Shown here: in pieces, positions 26,064-31,431 of the stretch | How the letters are laid out: every line of letters starts with the position of its first letter | Position numbering within the stretch: position 1 is the stretch's first letter | Assembly (NCBI RefSeq): GCF_001457595.1 | Contig: NZ_LN831039.1 | Location: 3,660,001 to 3,692,000, forward strand | Direction: 5' to 3' | Length of the DNA stretch: 32,000 bases | Origin: Mycolicibacterium smegmatis | GTDB taxonomy: Bacteria; Actinomycetota; Actinomycetes; Mycobacteriales; Mycobacteriaceae | The notes under the pieces: generated by a model | What the model was told of the DNA's origin: nothing | Seen by the model: only the letters and a program-made list of their open reading frames with translations | Databases searched by the model: none | Program-made: the position numbers and the translations under genes

Positions 26064-28124
26064 TCAGGCGGCGGGGCCGGCGGCGGAGGCGAGTTCGGCG
26101 CGGTCGTCGGACCAGTCACGTTGGACGAGCATCCGGTGGGCGATGCGTTCGAGCGCGGCCTCGACCTGGACGCGGTCGGGGCGACCTTCGAAGGACGGGG
26201 ACTTCTCGAGCTTTTCGATGATGCGCCCGACGAGTGCGGTGGAGACCGCGTCGACCTGGCTCAGGCCGGCCTGGGTCAGCCACAGCCGATCCCCCGTGCG
26301 CAGCGCGTATCCGCCCGTGACGAGACGGTCGAAGATCGGCTCGAACACCTCGTAGGGAACGCGCAGGCGTTCGGCGATCGCGGTGAGCGTGGCCGAGCCG
26401 AACACCTGACTGTGCCGGTAGATCTGCAGCAGTGCCCACAGTCCCGCGACGTCGAGATCGCAGCCCGGGCAGCCCGCGACCGTGCGCAACCGGATCTCCG
26501 GAGAGTGGCGCATGATCCGGCTGATCGCGGTCTCCAGGACCTTCTCGGCAGGCTCGGTGCTCGGCATGCCGAATCCCTCGCCCAGGTCGACCGCTGCGGT
26601 CGGATCCAGCTCCTGCAGCGGCACCTCCTTGAGGAACAGCGACACCACGAAACCCAGCAGCGCGACCGGCGCGGCGCACAGGAACACCAACCCGAGCGAG
26701 TCGGCATATGCCTCGACGATCGGGGCGGCGATATCGGGTGGCAACTCGTGCAGCACCTTGGGCGACTCCCCCGCCGCGGGCGGTGCGCCGCTTTCGGCGA
26801 TGGCCGTGACGAGCCTGCTCGAGAGGAAGTTGGCGAACAGCGACCCGAAGATCGCGGCGCCGAACGAGCTGCCGATGGTGCGGAAGAACGTCACACCTGA
26901 GGTCGCGACGCCGAGATCGTCGAAGCGCGACGTGTTCTGCACCGTGAGGATCAGCACCTGCATGCACAGGCCGATGCCTGTGCCGAGGATGAACAGGTAC
27001 AGCGACTGCAGCACGAACGGGGTGGTGGCGTCCATGCGCGACAGCAGCAGGAAGCCCACCACCATGATCGCCGTGCCCATGACGGGAAAGATCTTGTACC
27101 GGCCGGTGCGGCCCACCAGGGCGCCGCTGCCGGTCGAGGTGATGAGCAGGCCGGCCACCATGGGCAGGGTGCGCAAACCGGACTCGGTGGCCGACACGCC
27201 GTCGACGAACTGCATGAACGTCGGCAGGAACGTGAGTGCGCCCAGCATCGCGAAACCCACGATGAACGACAGCACACAGCACACCGTGAACACCGGGCTG
27301 CGGAACAGGCGCATCGGCAGGATCGGTTCGGCCGCACGGGTTTCCGCACGGACGAACAGCACCAGCGCGATGATCGAGCCGATGAACAGGCCGATGATCA
27401 TCGGCGAGGTCCATGCGTATTCGCCGCCGCCCCAGCTGGTGGCCAGCGTGAGGCCGGATGCACCGAGACCCACGAACAGGATCCCGACGTAGTCGATCGC
27501 GGGCCTGCGGCCCGAGCGCACCAGCGCCGGGATGGCGCCTGCGGCGATGACCAGCACGAGGATGCCGACGGGAACGTTGATCCAGAACGCCCAGCGCCAG
27601 GACATGTGGTCGGTGAAGAACCCGCCGAGCAGCGGCCCGATCACGGTCGTGACGCCGAACACCGCCCCGAGCGCCCCCTGGTAGCGCCCGCGGTCGCGCA
27701 ACGGGATCACCTCACCGATCAGCGCGGTCGCGGTCACCATCATCGCGCCGCCGCCGATACCCTGCAGTGCGCGTGCGGCCACGAGCATGGTCATCGAACC
27801 CGACAGACCGCACAGCACCGACCCGGCGAGGAAGAACAGCACCGCGGCCTGGAACACCACCTTGCGGCCGAACAGATCGCCCACCTTGCCGACCACCGCG
27901 GTGACAATGGTCGAGGCCAGCAGATAGCTCGTCACCACCCAGGACTGATGACCTGCTCCCCCGAGGTCGGCGACCACGGTCGGCAGCGCGGTCGCGACGA
28001 TCGTCTGGTCGAGGGCCGCCAGCAGCATGCCGAACAGCACCGCGAGGAACACGAGGTTGCGCCGACGCGGCGTGAGCAGCAGCTCCGGCGGCTGCGGCGG
28101 GGCACTCGCTGGTGAGCTCGTCAT
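26064..28124 (-). CDS. DHA2-family (EmrB/QacA-like, 14-TMS) MFS efflux transporter with a C-terminal cytoplasmic MarR-like winged-helix extension of about 190 aa
   Basis: The N-terminus LFGMLLAALDQTIVATALPTVVADLGG and GKVGDLFGRK are DHA2 motifs. After the last TM, LDVAGLWALLQIYRHSQVFGSATLTAIAERLRVPYEVFEPIFDRLVTGGYALRTGDRLWLTQAG looks like a MarR-type wHTH. SD AAAGGA precedes ATG 28124. The size matches M. tuberculosis Rv1877 (687 aa, from memory). Confidence 0.9.
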   Translation of the reverse strand: MTSSPASAPPQPPELLLTPRRRNLVFLAVLFGMLLAALDQTIVATALPTVVADLGGAGHQSWVVTSYLLASTIVTAVVGKVGDLFGRKVVFQAAVLFFLAGSVLCGLSGSMTMLVAARALQGIGGGAMMVTATALIGEVIPLRDRGRYQGALGAVFGVTTVIGPLLGGFFTDHMSWRWAFWINVPVGILVLVIAAGAIPALVRSGRRPAIDYVGILFVGLGASGLTLATSWGGGEYAWTSPMIIGLFIGSIIALVLFVRAETRAAEPILPMRLFRSPVFTVCCVLSFIVGFAMLGALTFLPTFMQFVDGVSATESGLRTLPMVAGLLITSTGSGALVGRTGRYKIFPVMGTAIMVVGFLLLSRMDATTPFVLQSLYLFILGTGIGLCMQVLILTVQNTSRFDDLGVATSGVTFFRTIGSSFGAAIFGSLFANFLSSRLVTAIAESGAPPAAGESPKVLHELPPDIAAPIVEAYADSLGLVFLCAAPVALLGFVVSLFLKEVPLQELDPTAAVDLGEGFGMPSTEPAEKVLETAISRIMRHSPEIRLRTVAGCPGCDLDVAGLWALLQIYRHSQVFGSATLTAIAERLRVPYEVFEPIFDRLVTGGYALRTGDRLWLTQAGLSQVDAVSTALVGRIIEKLEKSPSFEGRPDRVQVEAALERIAHRMLVQRDWSDDRAELASAAGPAA

Positions 28125-28280: not shown

Positions 28281-28766
28281 TCAGGCGCTACCCGGAGGCC
28301 GGGAAACGCATTGCGCGGCATAGAGCGCGTCGCCGAGCTTGTCCATGAGCTGCAGTTGGGTCTCGAGGTAGTCGATGTGCGTCTCCTCGTCGGCGAGGAT
28401 CTGCTCGAGGAGCCGGGCCGACGTCGCATCCTGCTTCTCGCGGCACAGCACGATGCCGGGCTTCAGACGCTCGAGCACCTCGTACTCGATCGCCAGGTCG
28501 GCCTCGAATTGTTCACGGAGCGTCTGACCCACGCGCAGCGAAAACAAGCGCTGGTAATTCGGCAACCCGTCGAGCAGCAGAATTCGATCGGTGATCGTTT
28601 CCGCGTGCCGCATTTCTTCGAACGATTCGGCACGCGTATGTTCGGCCAGTTCGGTGAATCCCCAGTTGTCCTGCATTTTGGAATGAAGAAAATACTGGTT
28701 GATGGCCGTCAGTTCGCTCGTCAATTGCTCGTTGAGCAATTTCAGAACATCCGGGTCCCCTTGCAT
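28281..28766 (-). CDS. bfrA: bacterioferritin BfrA
   Basis: MQGDPDVLKLLNEQLTSELTAINQYFLHSKMQDNWGFTELAEHTRAESFEEMRHAE...DYLETQLQLMDKLG is near-identical in pattern to M. tuberculosis BfrA as recalled. It carries the ferroxidase ligands and the heme-ligand Met (HSKMQ). SD AGGAG precedes ATG 28766. Confidence 0.95.
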   Translation of the reverse strand: MQGDPDVLKLLNEQLTSELTAINQYFLHSKMQDNWGFTELAEHTRAESFEEMRHAETITDRILLLDGLPNYQRLFSLRVGQTLREQFEADLAIEYEVLERLKPGIVLCREKQDATSARLLEQILADEETHIDYLETQLQLMDKLGDALYAAQCVSRPPGSA

Positions 28767-28943
28767 GGTCACTCCTAGACACCTTGAGGGCTGATCAAGT
28801 GGTGCTGTTTTGCCGTGCACTCTCAATGTAGTGCAGAAAGCCCTTTGTGAGGCAACGCTTAACGCCGTTGTCGGCGAGTCCCGGCCGCGGTGCGCGGTCA
28901 CCGGACGGCGCGCGACTGGGCCGAGAGGGCTGTGGCCACGAAG

Positions 28944-28982
28944 GCTGGACTGCCTTGCCTAAGTAAGGTTAGACTCCGCTAA
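28944..28982. promoter_or_regulatory. two abutting candidate IdeR iron boxes in the bfrA / tandem-domain-gene divergent region
   Basis: 28964-28982 TAAGGTTAGACTCCGCTAA matches the degenerate IdeR consensus TWAGGTWAGSCTWACCTWA at 15/19, with a perfect left half. 28944-28962, read on the minus strand as TTAGGCAAGGCAGTCCAGC, matches at 12/19 with a strong left half. The first box overlaps a TAGACT -10-like hexamer about 40 nt upstream of ATG 29017. Confidence 0.45.
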
Positions 28983-29016
28983 CCATGACTCAGGCAGGTG
29001 TGGAAAGGCCCGGTGA

Positions 29017-29649
29017 ATGAGCGAGTACGATTTGCACTCGCTCATCCTTGCCTGCGATTTCCGCGTCGATGATGTCGACGACATGTGGAAATGGATGAAC
29101 AAACACCGCGACGGCCTCAAATCGATCGGGGCGCACCATGTGGTGCTCTACAAATCGATCTGGGAACCGGGCCGCGTCCTTGTGACCATCGGCATCCGGC
29201 AGGCACGTTCGATACGCGAATTGCTGCGATCGCCCGAAATCTTCGAATGGTTCGACAAGTCCGGCGTCCAAGACATACCTCCCATTTTCGGCGGCGAGGT
29301 GGTCGAGAAAATCGACCTCGGTGAACCGACCCCGGAAACGCACGTCGCCGGTGTCATCGTCGGCGCGGTCGCACCCGTCGACGACGTCTCCACACTCATG
29401 CGGAAAGTGCACGACGGCCTCGCGCGATTCGCCGGCAGCGGCATCCGCAAGATCTGGGTCTACCGGGCGCTCGACGACGGCAACGAGGTCATGATCCTGC
29501 AGGAGATCGAGAACGAGGTCAGCGCACGCCAGTGGATCTCGCATCCCGACGCGGCCGCGGAGTGGATGACCAACGCCGGATTCGGCCCGTACCCCAGCCT
29601 GTTCGTCGGGAAGCTGGCGCACATCATGACCGTCGAAGGGCAGGTGTAG
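29017..29649 (+). CDS. uncharacterised 210-aa protein built from two homologous ~100-aa modules (possibly alpha+beta barrel / ABM-like)
   Basis: SD ggaaagg precedes ATG 29017. An internal duplication is visible by eye: DDVDDMWKWMNKHRDGLKSIGAHHVVLYKSIWEPGRVLVTIGIRQARSIRELLRSPEIFEWFDKSGV versus DDVSTLMRKVHDGLARFAGSGIRKIWVYRALDDGNEVMILQEIENEVSARQWISHPDAAAEWMTNAGF. The bfd gene follows 5 nt later. Confidence 0.75.
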   Translation: MSEYDLHSLILACDFRVDDVDDMWKWMNKHRDGLKSIGAHHVVLYKSIWEPGRVLVTIGIRQARSIRELLRSPEIFEWFDKSGVQDIPPIFGGEVVEKIDLGEPTPETHVAGVIVGAVAPVDDVSTLMRKVHDGLARFAGSGIRKIWVYRALDDGNEVMILQEIENEVSARQWISHPDAAAEWMTNAGFGPYPSLFVGKLAHIMTVEGQV

Positions 29650-29654
29650 CGGTC

Positions 29655-29864
29655 ATGTTCGTCTGCCTGTGCACCGGCACCACCAGCCACGTGGTCAACG
29701 AGATCGTGGCGGGCGGCGCGACCACCTCGAAGGAGGTGGCCGAGGCGTGTGGGGCCGGCGGTGACTGCGGCCGCTGCAGGCGCACCATCCGCGCGATCAT
29801 CTCCGCGCATCTGGGCGGCCACACGGCACACCACAACGGCTGCCCGACGCGCGCGAGCGGTTAG
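29655..29864 (+). CDS. bfd: bacterioferritin-associated ferredoxin (BFD-like [2Fe-2S] protein)
   Basis: MFVCLCTGTT...ACGAGGDCGRCRRTI shows the C-x-C...C-x2-C ligand pattern of Bfd. The product is 69 aa. The gene lies close to bfrA. Confidence 0.85.
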   Translation: MFVCLCTGTTSHVVNEIVAGGATTSKEVAEACGAGGDCGRCRRTIRAIISAHLGGHTAHHNGCPTRASG

Positions 29865-30628
29865 CTGCCTGCCGCACCCTTGCGGCCGGTGAACGCCGCG
29901 AGCGCCTCAGCGTTGGCCGCGGCGCCCACGAGCTCGACGAACAACTCGCTCTCGCGGCGGGTGGCCGCCGCGATGGCCTCACGCACCGGGGCGACCATTG
30001 TCTTCTTGACCGCCTGCAGGCTGGTAACCGGTTTGGCGGCAAGGATTTCGGCGTGCCTGCGGGCCTCGGTGAGCAGATCGCCCGGTGTGCAGACCTTGAA
30101 CACCAGGCCCATCTCCTTGGCCTCCGCGGCGCTGATCCACTCCGAGGACATCAGCAGCCAGGCCGCGTTCTGCCTGCCGATCAGGCGCGGCATGAGATAG
30201 GACGACGCCGCCTCCGGCGCCACCCCCAGGCTGGTGAACGGGCATTTGAGCCGCGCGGTGTCGGCCATGAACACCAGGTCGGCGAAACCGAGGATCGTCG
30301 CGCCGATCCCCACGCCCACGCCGTTGACCGCACACAGCAACGGCTTGGGGAAATCGGCGAGCGCCTCGATCATGCCGTAGAACCCGTGCTCCCCCGGTGT
30401 GAAATCCGGGTTGGCGATCCGTGTCTGCATCTCGACCAGGTCGTTGCCCGACGAGAATGCCCGTCCGGCGCCGGTGAGCAGGACCACCGAGACCTCCGGA
30501 TCCCCGCCCGCGGCCAGCAGGGCGTCGGTCACCTCGTCGTAGAGCGCTTCGTTGAACGCATTGAGCGCGTCGGGACGGTTGAGGGTGAGCGTGCGAACCC
30601 GGTTGCTGTCGTCGATCTGCAGGTTCAA
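29861..30628 (-). CDS. enoyl-CoA hydratase/isomerase (crotonase) family protein
   Basis: LTLNRPDALNAFN...VVLLTGAGRAFSSGNDL...AVNGVGVGIGATILGFADLVF is the crotonase oxyanion-hole pattern. TTG 30628 is preceded by SD GAGGAG at 5 nt. Its stop overlaps the bfd stop (TTAG). Confidence 0.9.
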   Translation of the reverse strand: MNLQIDDSNRVRTLTLNRPDALNAFNEALYDEVTDALLAAGGDPEVSVVLLTGAGRAFSSGNDLVEMQTRIANPDFTPGEHGFYGMIEALADFPKPLLCAVNGVGVGIGATILGFADLVFMADTARLKCPFTSLGVAPEAASSYLMPRLIGRQNAAWLLMSSEWISAAEAKEMGLVFKVCTPGDLLTEARRHAEILAAKPVTSLQAVKKTMVAPVREAIAAATRRESELFVELVGAAANAEALAAFTGRKGAAGS

Positions 30629-30687: not shown

Positions 30688-31431
30688 CTAACTAGAACAC
30701 GTTTCACTCGCGGCGGCGGGTGCGGAGAACGGCGAGCGCCAGACATAGCGACTCGTCGGCACCGTGTCGATGTTGCTGCTCGCGCCGAACGCGTCGGTGC
30801 TCGCCACCATGGCCTGCATGCGCCGGGACAGGTCCTCGTCGTCGGCCGCGCCGAAGAACGCGTGCAGATCCGCCACGGCCTGCGGTGGGAACAACTCCTC
30901 GACGATCCCGTCGATCGCCGGTGCGTCCGCGGTGAGCGCGCGCACCACGGTGTTCTGGACATAGCCGAACGTGGCCTGGGTTTCGATGGCCACCGGGGTG
31001 TGGTCGACGTGCCAGCGGTGCAGCCAGGTCGCGGCGTCGAGGTCGGGGGGCCTGCGCAGCAGCGCGATGTTGGCCAACGCGTCGGTACGGCGCCCCGGCG
31101 TCAGGCCCGCCCGGAGGTCCGGTGGCGGCAGCGGCTCCGATTCGGTCACCAGATACGCTGCGGCCGAGTCGCATTCGGCACCGAGGAGGTCAAGCGCGGC
31201 ACGCAGCTGTTCTCCGTGATACTGCTGCACCCATACGCTGGCGAGTGCCACGACCGGAGGATCGAGCGTCGTCAGGGTCATCAGCGAATCGCGCACCGGT
31301 GCGTCACGGATGTTGAGAACCAAGCCGGGAAGCCCGATTTCGAGCAGTTCGGCGCTGACGTCTTGGACCATCCGCGCACACCAGGCGTCGTCAGCGCGCG
31401 CGGACCGCATTGTCACGATGACCTTTTCCAC
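30688..31431 (-). CDS. conserved hypothetical protein (possibly EthD-like)
   Basis: Good GC3 bias over 247 codons. WLHRWHVDHTPVAIE is loosely reminiscent of EthD-domain proteins. The start is uncertain (GTG 31431 or ATG 31410). Confidence 0.65.
   Translation of the reverse strand: MEKVIVTMRSARADDAWCARMVQDVSAELLEIGLPGLVLNIRDAPVRDSLMTLTTLDPPVVALASVWVQQYHGEQLRAALDLLGAECDSAAAYLVTESEPLPPPDLRAGLTPGRRTDALANIALLRRPPDLDAATWLHRWHVDHTPVAIETQATFGYVQNTVVRALTADAPAIDGIVEELFPPQAVADLHAFFGAADDEDLSRRMQAMVASTDAFGASSNIDTVPTSRYVWRSPFSAPAAASETCSS

Follow-up and report, generated by a model that had tools for sequence, protein, structure and literature searches.

In Pseudomonas, the bacterioferritin-associated ferredoxin Bfd is a [2Fe-2S] protein that docks on bacterioferritin above the heme and provides the electrons that reduce the ferric core. 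To our knowledge, Pseudomonas is the only case in which the mechanism of iron release from bacterioferritin is understood; there, Bfd acts together with a general reductase. The BfrB-Bfd system of Pseudomonas aeruginosa (PDB 4E6K) consists of a heme bacterioferritin and an adjacently encoded Fer2_BFD ferredoxin with the cysteine pattern C-x-C...C-x2-C. It has two components plus the general reductase, is regulated by Fur, and Bfd is induced in low iron. We analyzed a 32,000-nucleotide (nt) stretch of the Mycolicibacterium smegmatis genome (contig NZ_LN831039.1; referred to as the window) in which bfrA, the gene for a heme-containing bacterioferritin, likewise lies near a gene for a Fer2_BFD ferredoxin with the same cysteine pattern. 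The M. smegmatis locus differs from that of P. aeruginosa, which has no comparable third partner, in that the regulator is expected to be IdeR and in that a 210-amino-acid (aa) protein with a predicted tandem ABM-like structure, designated X here, is translationally coupled to Bfd. Induction of M. smegmatis bfd in low iron would be the equivalent of the P. aeruginosa response.

A closer relative of this locus is found in Mycobacterium tuberculosis. As described in PMC5218490, in a statement citing Gold 2001, M. tuberculosis bfd is divergent from bfrA, regulated by IdeR, and induced in low iron. What Bfd does in mycobacteria is, according to PMC5218490, still a matter of speculation. IdeR boxes arranged in tandem ahead of bfrA and bfrB activate both genes, and an IdeR box that overlaps a promoter represses that promoter (bioRxiv 10.64898/2026.07.13.738276). 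A transcript that is induced by iron limitation and is antisense between Rv1875 and bfrA has been reported in M. tuberculosis (PMC7029489); this transcript is probably the bfd mRNA. An IdeR operator that separates bfrA from a divergent bfd has been described before in M. tuberculosis, and its counterpart in M. smegmatis introduces no new principle. We consider it probable that the window contains the M. smegmatis form of this divergent, IdeR-controlled bfd/bfrA locus and that it includes one further gene, X, encoding a partner of Bfd. Our confidence in the regulatory part of this reading is high, and we lean slightly toward X functioning in the Bfd/Bfr pathway.

Results and Discussion

Gene content of the locus

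All features are given in window coordinates, which are equal to the genome coordinates of Li 2017 minus 3597903. A first-pass annotation of the window, made from the nucleotide sequence, had proposed that bfrA and a two-gene unit share a 250-bp divergent region. The open reading frame (ORF) listing agrees with it in every coordinate: bfrA occupies positions 28281 to 28766 on the minus strand, the spacer extends from 28767 to 29016, X occupies 29017 to 29649 on the plus strand, and bfd (69 aa; 29655 to 29864, plus strand) begins 5 nt past the end of X.

The identities of BfrA and Bfd are firm. BfrA scored 243.6 bits against the TIGR00754 equivalog model (cutoff, 125.55), also matched PF00210, retains the heme ligand Met52, and is identical at 161/161 residues to the M. 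smegmatis Bfr of PDB 3BKN, which assigns the window to M. smegmatis mc2155. The published position of the gene, MSMEG_3564 (bfr), is 3626184..3626669 on the minus strand (Li 2017, PMC5741613). The assignment of the second plus-strand gene as bfd, also made in the first-pass annotation, was confirmed by a match to PF04324 (Fer2_BFD; E=6e-11; 43 bits versus a cutoff of 26) and by alignment of residues 1 to 53 with P. aeruginosa Bfd (4E6K_G; E=7e-8), in which all four cluster cysteines (C4, C6, C38, and C41) align. Bfd of fast growers is also extended at its C terminus by a segment with an additional conserved cysteine, NGCP[ST]R (29832 to 29864 in the window), that lies outside the core Fer2_BFD domain.

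Table S6 of Martini 2019 includes a high-confidence two-gene plus-strand operon, MSMEG_3566-3568, and among its entries are number swaps at convergent overlapping gene ends, such as MSMEG_1880/1881. Because the locus has no plus-strand gene pair other than X and bfd, and because of such swaps, X is most probably MSMEG_3566 and bfd is most probably MSMEG_3568. The transcriptome sequencing data behind this operon call (Martini 2019) support cotranscription of X and bfd. Neither MSMEG_3566 nor MSMEG_3568 is discussed in the main texts of the searchable literature, and searches with the box sequence and with MSMEG_3565, MSMEG_3566, and MSMEG_3568 returned no discussion of X.

Regulatory region between bfrA and X

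Candidate IdeR boxes were scored against the 19-bp consensus TTAGGTTAGGCTAACCTAA, the wording of which was confirmed in PMC4598388. The site referred to as box B (TAAGGTTAGACTCCGCTAA; 28964 to 28982), which overlaps the predicted X-bfd promoter, matches the consensus at 14/19 positions. No other site in the window has 5 or fewer mismatches, and about 0.03 such sites would be expected on the basis of 100 first-order Markov shuffles of the window. Orthologous boxes are present at 35 of the 36 loci in a comparison set of Mycolicibacterium and Mycobacterium species (307 kb, with 35 spacers aligned), and, apart from one additional site, no other sequence with 5 or fewer mismatches was found in the 307 kb. 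That additional site (TTCGGTGAGGCGAACCTTA; L035:3872-3890) is a better IdeR-like box, with 4 mismatches, 129 nt upstream of X on the bfrA side in Mycolicibacterium arenosum.

The bfrA-proximal site, box A (GCTGGACTGCCTTGCCTAA; 28944 to 28962), matches the consensus at only 10/19 positions in the window and is not significant alone; variants such as TCTGGACTGGCTACGCTAA, which are common in metagenome loci, reach 12/19. Box A is nevertheless invariant across 35 species (TGGACTGsCTknCCTAA) and is always 1 nt from box B. The two boxes form a conserved tandem block with the pattern TGGACTGsCTknCCTAA-s-TAAGGTTAGACTnnnCTAA. In this block, 28944 to 28982, 29/39 alignment columns are invariant, compared with 16/205 in the rest of the spacer in the same species. 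The first-pass annotation had recognized two abutting IdeR-like boxes and credited the better of them with a perfect left half-site. Box B bears out the first point, and box A combines a low consensus score with invariance and a fixed register to box B; the half-site, TAAGGTTAG, is imperfect and matches the consensus half-site TTAGGTTAG at 8/9 positions.

A metagenome set of 80 further loci, restricted to close relatives (69 to 83% identity), adds counts rather than diversity. Of the 79 metagenome loci with enough upstream sequence, 78 have an IdeR-like site with no more than 6 mismatches, and rare variants in three loci, for example TTAGGTTAGACT..., shift toward the IdeR consensus. Tandem IdeR-like boxes in the same 19+1+19 arrangement, with 6 mismatches each, recur in distant actinobacterial loci (L038, 3913 to 3951; L039, 2949 to 2987), where they sit upstream of a bfd-bfr-bfd-X cluster.

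Loci from M. tuberculosis (L128) and Mycobacterium avium (L129) were obtained via their BfrA proteins. The M. tuberculosis spacer contains TTAGTGGAGTCTAGCCTAA and, 5 nt farther on, TTAGTGGAGTCTAACCTAA, with 5 and 4 mismatches to the consensus, respectively; the M. avium spacer contains two copies of TTAGTGGAGTCTAACCTAA. On the bfrA strand, the sequence of box B is TTAGCGGAGTCTAACCTTA; it agrees with the M. tuberculosis box TTAGTGGAGTCTAACCTAA, and with its M. avium equivalent, at 17/19 positions. Box B, with 14/19 matches, thus scores like the M. tuberculosis boxes (14/19 and 15/19) that are treated as IdeR targets in the literature, and is orthologous to them. Because the M. tuberculosis boxes to which it is 17/19 identical are reported as IdeR targets, box B is expected to bind IdeR in M. 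smegmatis. These comparisons bear out the regulatory proposal of the first-pass annotation in that the boxes are the fast-grower counterpart of the M. tuberculosis bfd-bfrA tandem iron boxes.

Both species have bfrA followed by an Rv1877-like MFS gene, a divergent unit ending in bfd that is iron repressed in M. tuberculosis and predicted to be so in M. smegmatis, the tandem box sequence TTAG(T/C)GGAGTCTAACCT(A/T)A, a TAGACT within the box on the bfd side, and, for bfrA, a -10 element of the TAGATT type located over 100 nt downstream of the boxes. They differ in that M. smegmatis and other fast growers have the 210-aa X between the promoter and bfd, and in that the bfrA-proximal box is degenerate in M. 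smegmatis (10/19, compared with 14 to 15/19 in M. tuberculosis). Measured from start to start, the boxes are 20 nt apart in M. smegmatis and 24 nt apart in M. tuberculosis. More generally, both boxes of the slow growers are strong (4 to 5 mismatches) and 24 nt apart, and fast growers have the 20-nt spacing with a degenerate bfrA-proximal box.

A TAGACT that conforms to the mycobacterial TANNNT pattern and is the predicted -10 element of X-bfd lies within box B on the plus strand (28970 to 28975), 41 nt before the ATG, and its overlap with the better box is as the first-pass annotation had described. This hexamer is invariant in all aligned loci and is also found, on the bfd strand, within the bfd-proximal box of M. 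tuberculosis. Transcription of X-bfd would start near 28982, inside box B. A Shine-Dalgarno-like GGAAAGG, in which AAGG is conserved, is located 8 nt before the X start codon (29002 to 29008, plus strand). Homology to the M. tuberculosis operator and this geometry make repression of X-bfd by IdeR a well-supported prediction. In the portion of the Li 2017 data available to us (PMC5741613), no transcription start site (TSS) is listed for MSMEG_3566 in rich medium, which is weakly consistent with repression. A scan for E. coli-type sigma-70 promoters and terminators found nothing, and such a scan is uninformative for mycobacteria.

On the minus strand, the experimentally mapped bfrA TSS lies at 28817 (genome position 3626720; Li 2017, PMC5741613, supplementary file 4) and gives a 51-nt 5' untranslated region. 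The -10 element is TACATT (28825 to 28830; -13 to -8 from the mapped TSS). It is TAGATT in most relatives and at the equivalent place in M. tuberculosis, within a block, AAT[C/G]TAG, that is conserved in 35 species. The tandem boxes are at -127 to -165 from this TSS. A further block in the bfrA 5' untranslated region (28772 to 28799, minus strand) is nearly invariant in 35 species, beyond the Shine-Dalgarno sequence. MrsI, an iron-sparing small RNA, represses bfrA in M. tuberculosis (PMC7029489), and this leader block might be a target of MrsI.

Association of X with bfd and bfr

X is consistently linked to bfd. A bfd-like ORF directly follows X, mostly with a 4-nt overlap, in 37/37 genome loci including the window, and bfrA is divergent from X in 35/35 genome loci with upstream sequence. 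Of the metagenome loci, 70/73 have bfd directly after X, and 57/57 with enough flanking sequence have a divergent bfrA. The first-pass annotation held that a lack of conserved linkage to bfd or bfr in other genomes would count against its proposal; the linkage is present even in distant homologues with rearranged gene orders. The mycobacterial arrangement, in which bfr is divergent from X-bfd, is shared by L040 and also by L041, L044, and L045, in which a PNPOx gene follows bfd. The order is bfd-X-bfr, preceded by an AMP-binding gene, in L037 and L043, and (bfd-)bfr-bfd-X, with a 4-nt overlap, in L038 and L039. In L047, X precedes bfd and no bfr is found within the available flank, and L046 appears degraded. 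Thus, the adjacency of X and bfd is kept in three gene orders among homologues of 24 to 50% identity, even at 24 to 27%, and a bfr gene almost always lies next to the pair. That X stays beside bfd, on one side or the other, despite rearrangements is the best argument for X working together with Bfd. Common control by IdeR alone does not explain the linkage because the 83-bp spacer of the L041/L044 type has no IdeR-like box.

A gene for a PNPOx-like protein (split-barrel flavin/F420) recurs beside bfd in several lineages (L041:6035-6493, L044:4209-4772, L128:4246-4689, and L129:3201-3644), including Rv1875. It is possible that this protein is an electron donor to Bfd.

Protein X

X has no match in Pfam or NCBIfam, including when its halves were searched separately at E<=10, and neither the whole protein nor either half matches the Pfam ABM model PF03992 at E<=10. 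Three single-domain relatives of X gave subthreshold ABM matches (E of 0.03 to 0.08). A profile built from 42 members, when compared with PDB sequences, returned nothing real; the one match, to 7uek, was rejected as spurious because 7uek is a designed protein. These searches agree with the statement in the first-pass annotation that the protein belongs to no recognized family. An initial homologue search recovered 818 proteins, and all those with species names came from fast-growing mycobacteria. When 1.84 billion representatives were searched exhaustively with HMMER, only 177 clusters (50% identity) were found at E<=1e-3, 30 of them at E<=1e-30. The X family is narrow.

RefSeq and UniRef label homologues of X (P0002-P0116, P0274) "fatty-acid--CoA ligase," and one JGI record names a homologue "heme-degrading monooxygenase HmoA." The ligase assignment can be rejected, because X has 210 aa, whereas about 500 or more would be expected, and has no AMP-binding hit (PF00501/PF13193). 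The misnaming was probably seeded by chimeric entries such as P0163, in which a FadD C terminus is joined to X, and loci in which an AMP-binding gene precedes bfd-X (L037, L043) may also have contributed. X is an undescribed protein: no family model covers it, its database name is wrong, and the searchable literature does not mention it.

The internal duplication of X that the first-pass annotation had noted is real: the two halves are homologous by BLASTP (E=1e-6) and by hhalign (probability of 99.3%, E=2.3e-20 over 98 columns), and a motif, W-x4-5-G-x4-P-x2-F-x-G, is found in both repeats. An AlphaFold2 model based on the 42-sequence alignment (pLDDT, 80.4; pTM, 0.81) has a beta-alpha-beta-beta-alpha-beta unit that occurs twice. 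In a Foldseek comparison of the model with the PDB, the best match was the anthrone-oxidase-like structure 5F9P (E of 4.7e-10, TM of 0.70), and the probability was 1.00 for tandem ABM structures. PenE (9KDP), 3F44, 3MCS, and 2PGC followed (E of about 1e-8 to 1e-7; TM of 0.51 to 0.68), and HmoB (4fvc), LmHde (4kia), TT1485 (1vdh), and HemQ/chlorite-dismutase-like structures came after these (E of about 1e-6 to 1e-5; TM of 0.45 to 0.57). As modeled, X is a pseudodimeric fusion of two ABM-like ferredoxin-fold domains, and the suggestion in the first-pass annotation of an ABM or dimeric alpha+beta barrel fold is borne out by the model and the Foldseek matches.

The tandem ABM proteins 5F9P, 9KDP, 3F44, 3MCS, and 2PGC have the two-domain architecture predicted for X, but they share only 10 to 15% identity with it and are found in polyketide or unknown contexts, not beside bfd or bfr. 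The heme-degrading proteins of the IsdG/MhuD/HmoB type resemble X in their ferredoxin-like alpha+beta barrel and in their association with iron starvation. Unlike X, they have an axial histidine or an Asn-Trp-His triad, and they are weaker structural matches (TM of 0.45 to 0.49, normalized to the query). In alignments of 42 diverse X members, the invariant residues are Y45, G83, P88, F91, G93, V121, G142, W147, Y149, A151, D153, E157, A170, and G198; no histidine is conserved above 79%, and no cysteine is conserved. The two alignments of X (A1 and A2) contain no invariant histidine or asparagine and no IsdG-type Asn-Trp-His triad. Nor was a conserved histidine found in X that could correspond to the proximal histidine of the HemQ/chlorite dismutase/DyP (CDE) proteins, to which the fold similarity is only 0.50 to 0.57 by TM. 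Because no histidine or asparagine is conserved, X does not appear to be a heme oxygenase of the IsdG/MhuD type, and the hint of such a role in the first-pass annotation is not supported. The computed isoelectric points (pI) are 5.2 for X and 4.6 for BfrA, which are both acidic, and 8.3 for the basic Bfd; the charges of X and Bfd are complementary, in favor of the proposed pairing.

Proposed mechanism and alternatives

The following model would account for these features. When iron is plentiful, Fe2+-IdeR would occupy the tandem operator at 28944 to 28982. IdeR on box B would cover the TAGACT -10 element and the likely start site, switching the X-bfd operon off, and the same bound IdeR, 127 to 165 nt upstream of the bfrA start, would aid bfrA transcription, on the analogy of M. 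tuberculosis. Under iron limitation, IdeR would leave the operator, and X and Bfd would be made together. Bfd would then reduce the ferric core of BfrA through the heme, as in the BfrB-Bfd system of Pseudomonas, and Fe2+ would leave. Acidic X could work directly with basic Bfd in this release of iron, and its most likely role would be that of a stoichiometric Bfd partner that stabilizes or docks Bfd, relays electrons, or accepts the released Fe2+. Induction of X in low iron and an interaction of X with Bfd or BfrA are predictions of this model. A more ambitious version is that X represents a new family whose members are a third component, specific to the mobilization of iron from bacterioferritin, in many Actinobacteria and that has been lost in slow-growing pathogens such as M. 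tuberculosis and M. avium; X would be made 1:1 with Bfd and would dock or stabilize Bfd on BfrA, relay electrons, or receive Fe2+. We put forward this version tentatively and regard it as possible rather than probable.

Several observations weigh against the model. Box A is a poor match to the consensus, the spacer of the L041/L044 type has no box, and the X-bfd start site is placed from a predicted -10 element. The boxes are unusually far from the sole mapped bfrA TSS, and activation of bfrA is proposed by analogy. The fold of X alone specifies no function. No X-Bfd fusion proteins were found among the longer homologues, all of which were frameshifted or chimeric gene calls. In slow growers, bfd is directly divergent from bfrA, without X (L128:4695-5207 in M. 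tuberculosis; L129:4465-5003 in M. avium), and no X is present within 5 kb on either side of bfd-bfrA in these two species. Therefore, X is accessory and not a universal partner of Bfd/Bfr, and Bfd-Bfr chemistry as a whole cannot require it. Two candidates for a hidden M. tuberculosis X were rejected. A supposed 1.7-kb gap upstream of bfrA that might have concealed the gene was ruled out by the locus itself, and Rv1874, with an hhalign probability of 0.2%, is not an orthologue of X but of the EthD-like protein discussed below.

An alternative explanation for the conserved 39-bp block is that it is not an IdeR operator and serves only as the X-bfd promoter or as the site of another regulator. 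The weakness of box A and the predicted -10 element within the block would fit such a role, but a promoter would not need so many invariant bases (29/39 columns), and the literature reports IdeR binding to the boxes of M. tuberculosis and M. avium to which box B is 17/19 identical. The shift of natural variants toward the IdeR consensus in the three metagenome loci and the recurrence of the 19+1+19 tandem in a distant lineage also argue against this explanation, which we consider very improbable.

Two further alternatives concern the function of X. X might be an ABM enzyme or binding protein for a small molecule such as a quinol, a siderophore, or a polyketide-like ligand, sharing with bfd only its regulation by iron starvation and acting on neither Bfd nor BfrA. 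The closest folds, anthrone-oxidase-like and PenE monooxygenases, would suit this role, as would a set of conserved Trp, Tyr, Arg, Asp, and Glu residues in the C-terminal domain that could line a ligand pocket, and slow growers do without X. However, shared IdeR control is insufficient to explain X-bfd loci that have no IdeR box, the adjacency to bfd has outlasted three independent rearrangements at 24 to 27% identity, often with a 4-nt start/stop overlap, and no biosynthetic genes are consistently nearby. This alternative therefore appears unlikely. It is also conceivable that X binds or degrades heme, as an ABM protein of the IsdG/MhuD/HmoB or HemQ type, and is induced in low iron to obtain heme iron or to load or unload the heme of Bfr. 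BfrA is a heme protein, coregulation with an iron-starvation gene would fit, one JGI record carries the name HmoA, and the Foldseek matches include the heme-bound HmoB 4fvc, LmHde 4kia, 1vdh, and HemQ-like structures (E of 1e-6 to 1e-5). The residues expected of such a protein are nevertheless missing: the invariant positions are Tyr, Trp, Gly, Pro, Phe, Asp, and Glu, without a conserved cysteine, a histidine above 79%, or an equivalent of the IsdG triad. In addition, the Pfam ABM model does not match X, and the closest structures are tandem ABM oxygenases that use no cofactor (5f9p and PenE; TM of 0.66 to 0.70) rather than heme proteins (0.45 to 0.57). We consider a heme-related function quite unlikely.

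A role for X as a partner of Bfd would not overturn current understanding. X is found in the tractable M. smegmatis, and M. tuberculosis and M. avium do not have it at their bfd-bfrA loci; this offers a handle on what else the actinobacterial release pathway needs. X also marks a difference between fast- and slow-growing mycobacteria and may help to show how their iron homeostasis differs. The analysis corrects the RefSeq misannotation of X as "fatty-acid--CoA ligase" and defines a domain family for which Pfam and NCBIfam have no model.

Neighboring genes

The genes on either side of the locus are on the minus strand. Beyond bfrA, the ORF listing places a DHA2-type MFS transporter gene, MSMEG_3563, at 26064 to 28124; MSMEG_3563 has been described as an MFS pump (PMC6015033). 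Table S4 of Martini 2019 includes a strong antisense TSS within MSMEG_3563 at genome position 3625672 (plus strand), which maps to about position 27769 of the window on the plus strand, inside the MFS gene.

On the other side, the gene for an enoyl-CoA hydratase (MSMEG_3567; bioRxiv 10.64898/2026.02.26.708182) occupies 29861 to 30628, is convergent with bfd, and overlaps it by 4 nt. It is followed in the ORF listing by the gene for an EthD-like protein, MSMEG_3569, at 30688 to 31431, which is the orthologue of Rv1874 (62% identity). MSMEG_3569-3567 has been confirmed as a minus-strand operon by reverse transcription-PCR, and the mRNA of MSMEG_3569 is leaderless (Li 2017, PMC5741613). Direct comparison found no relationship between X and this neighboring EthD-like protein, and an Rfam scan of the window returned no matches. 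Relative to bfrA, the EthD-like gene has a 1-nt coordinate offset from the published NC_008596 positions.

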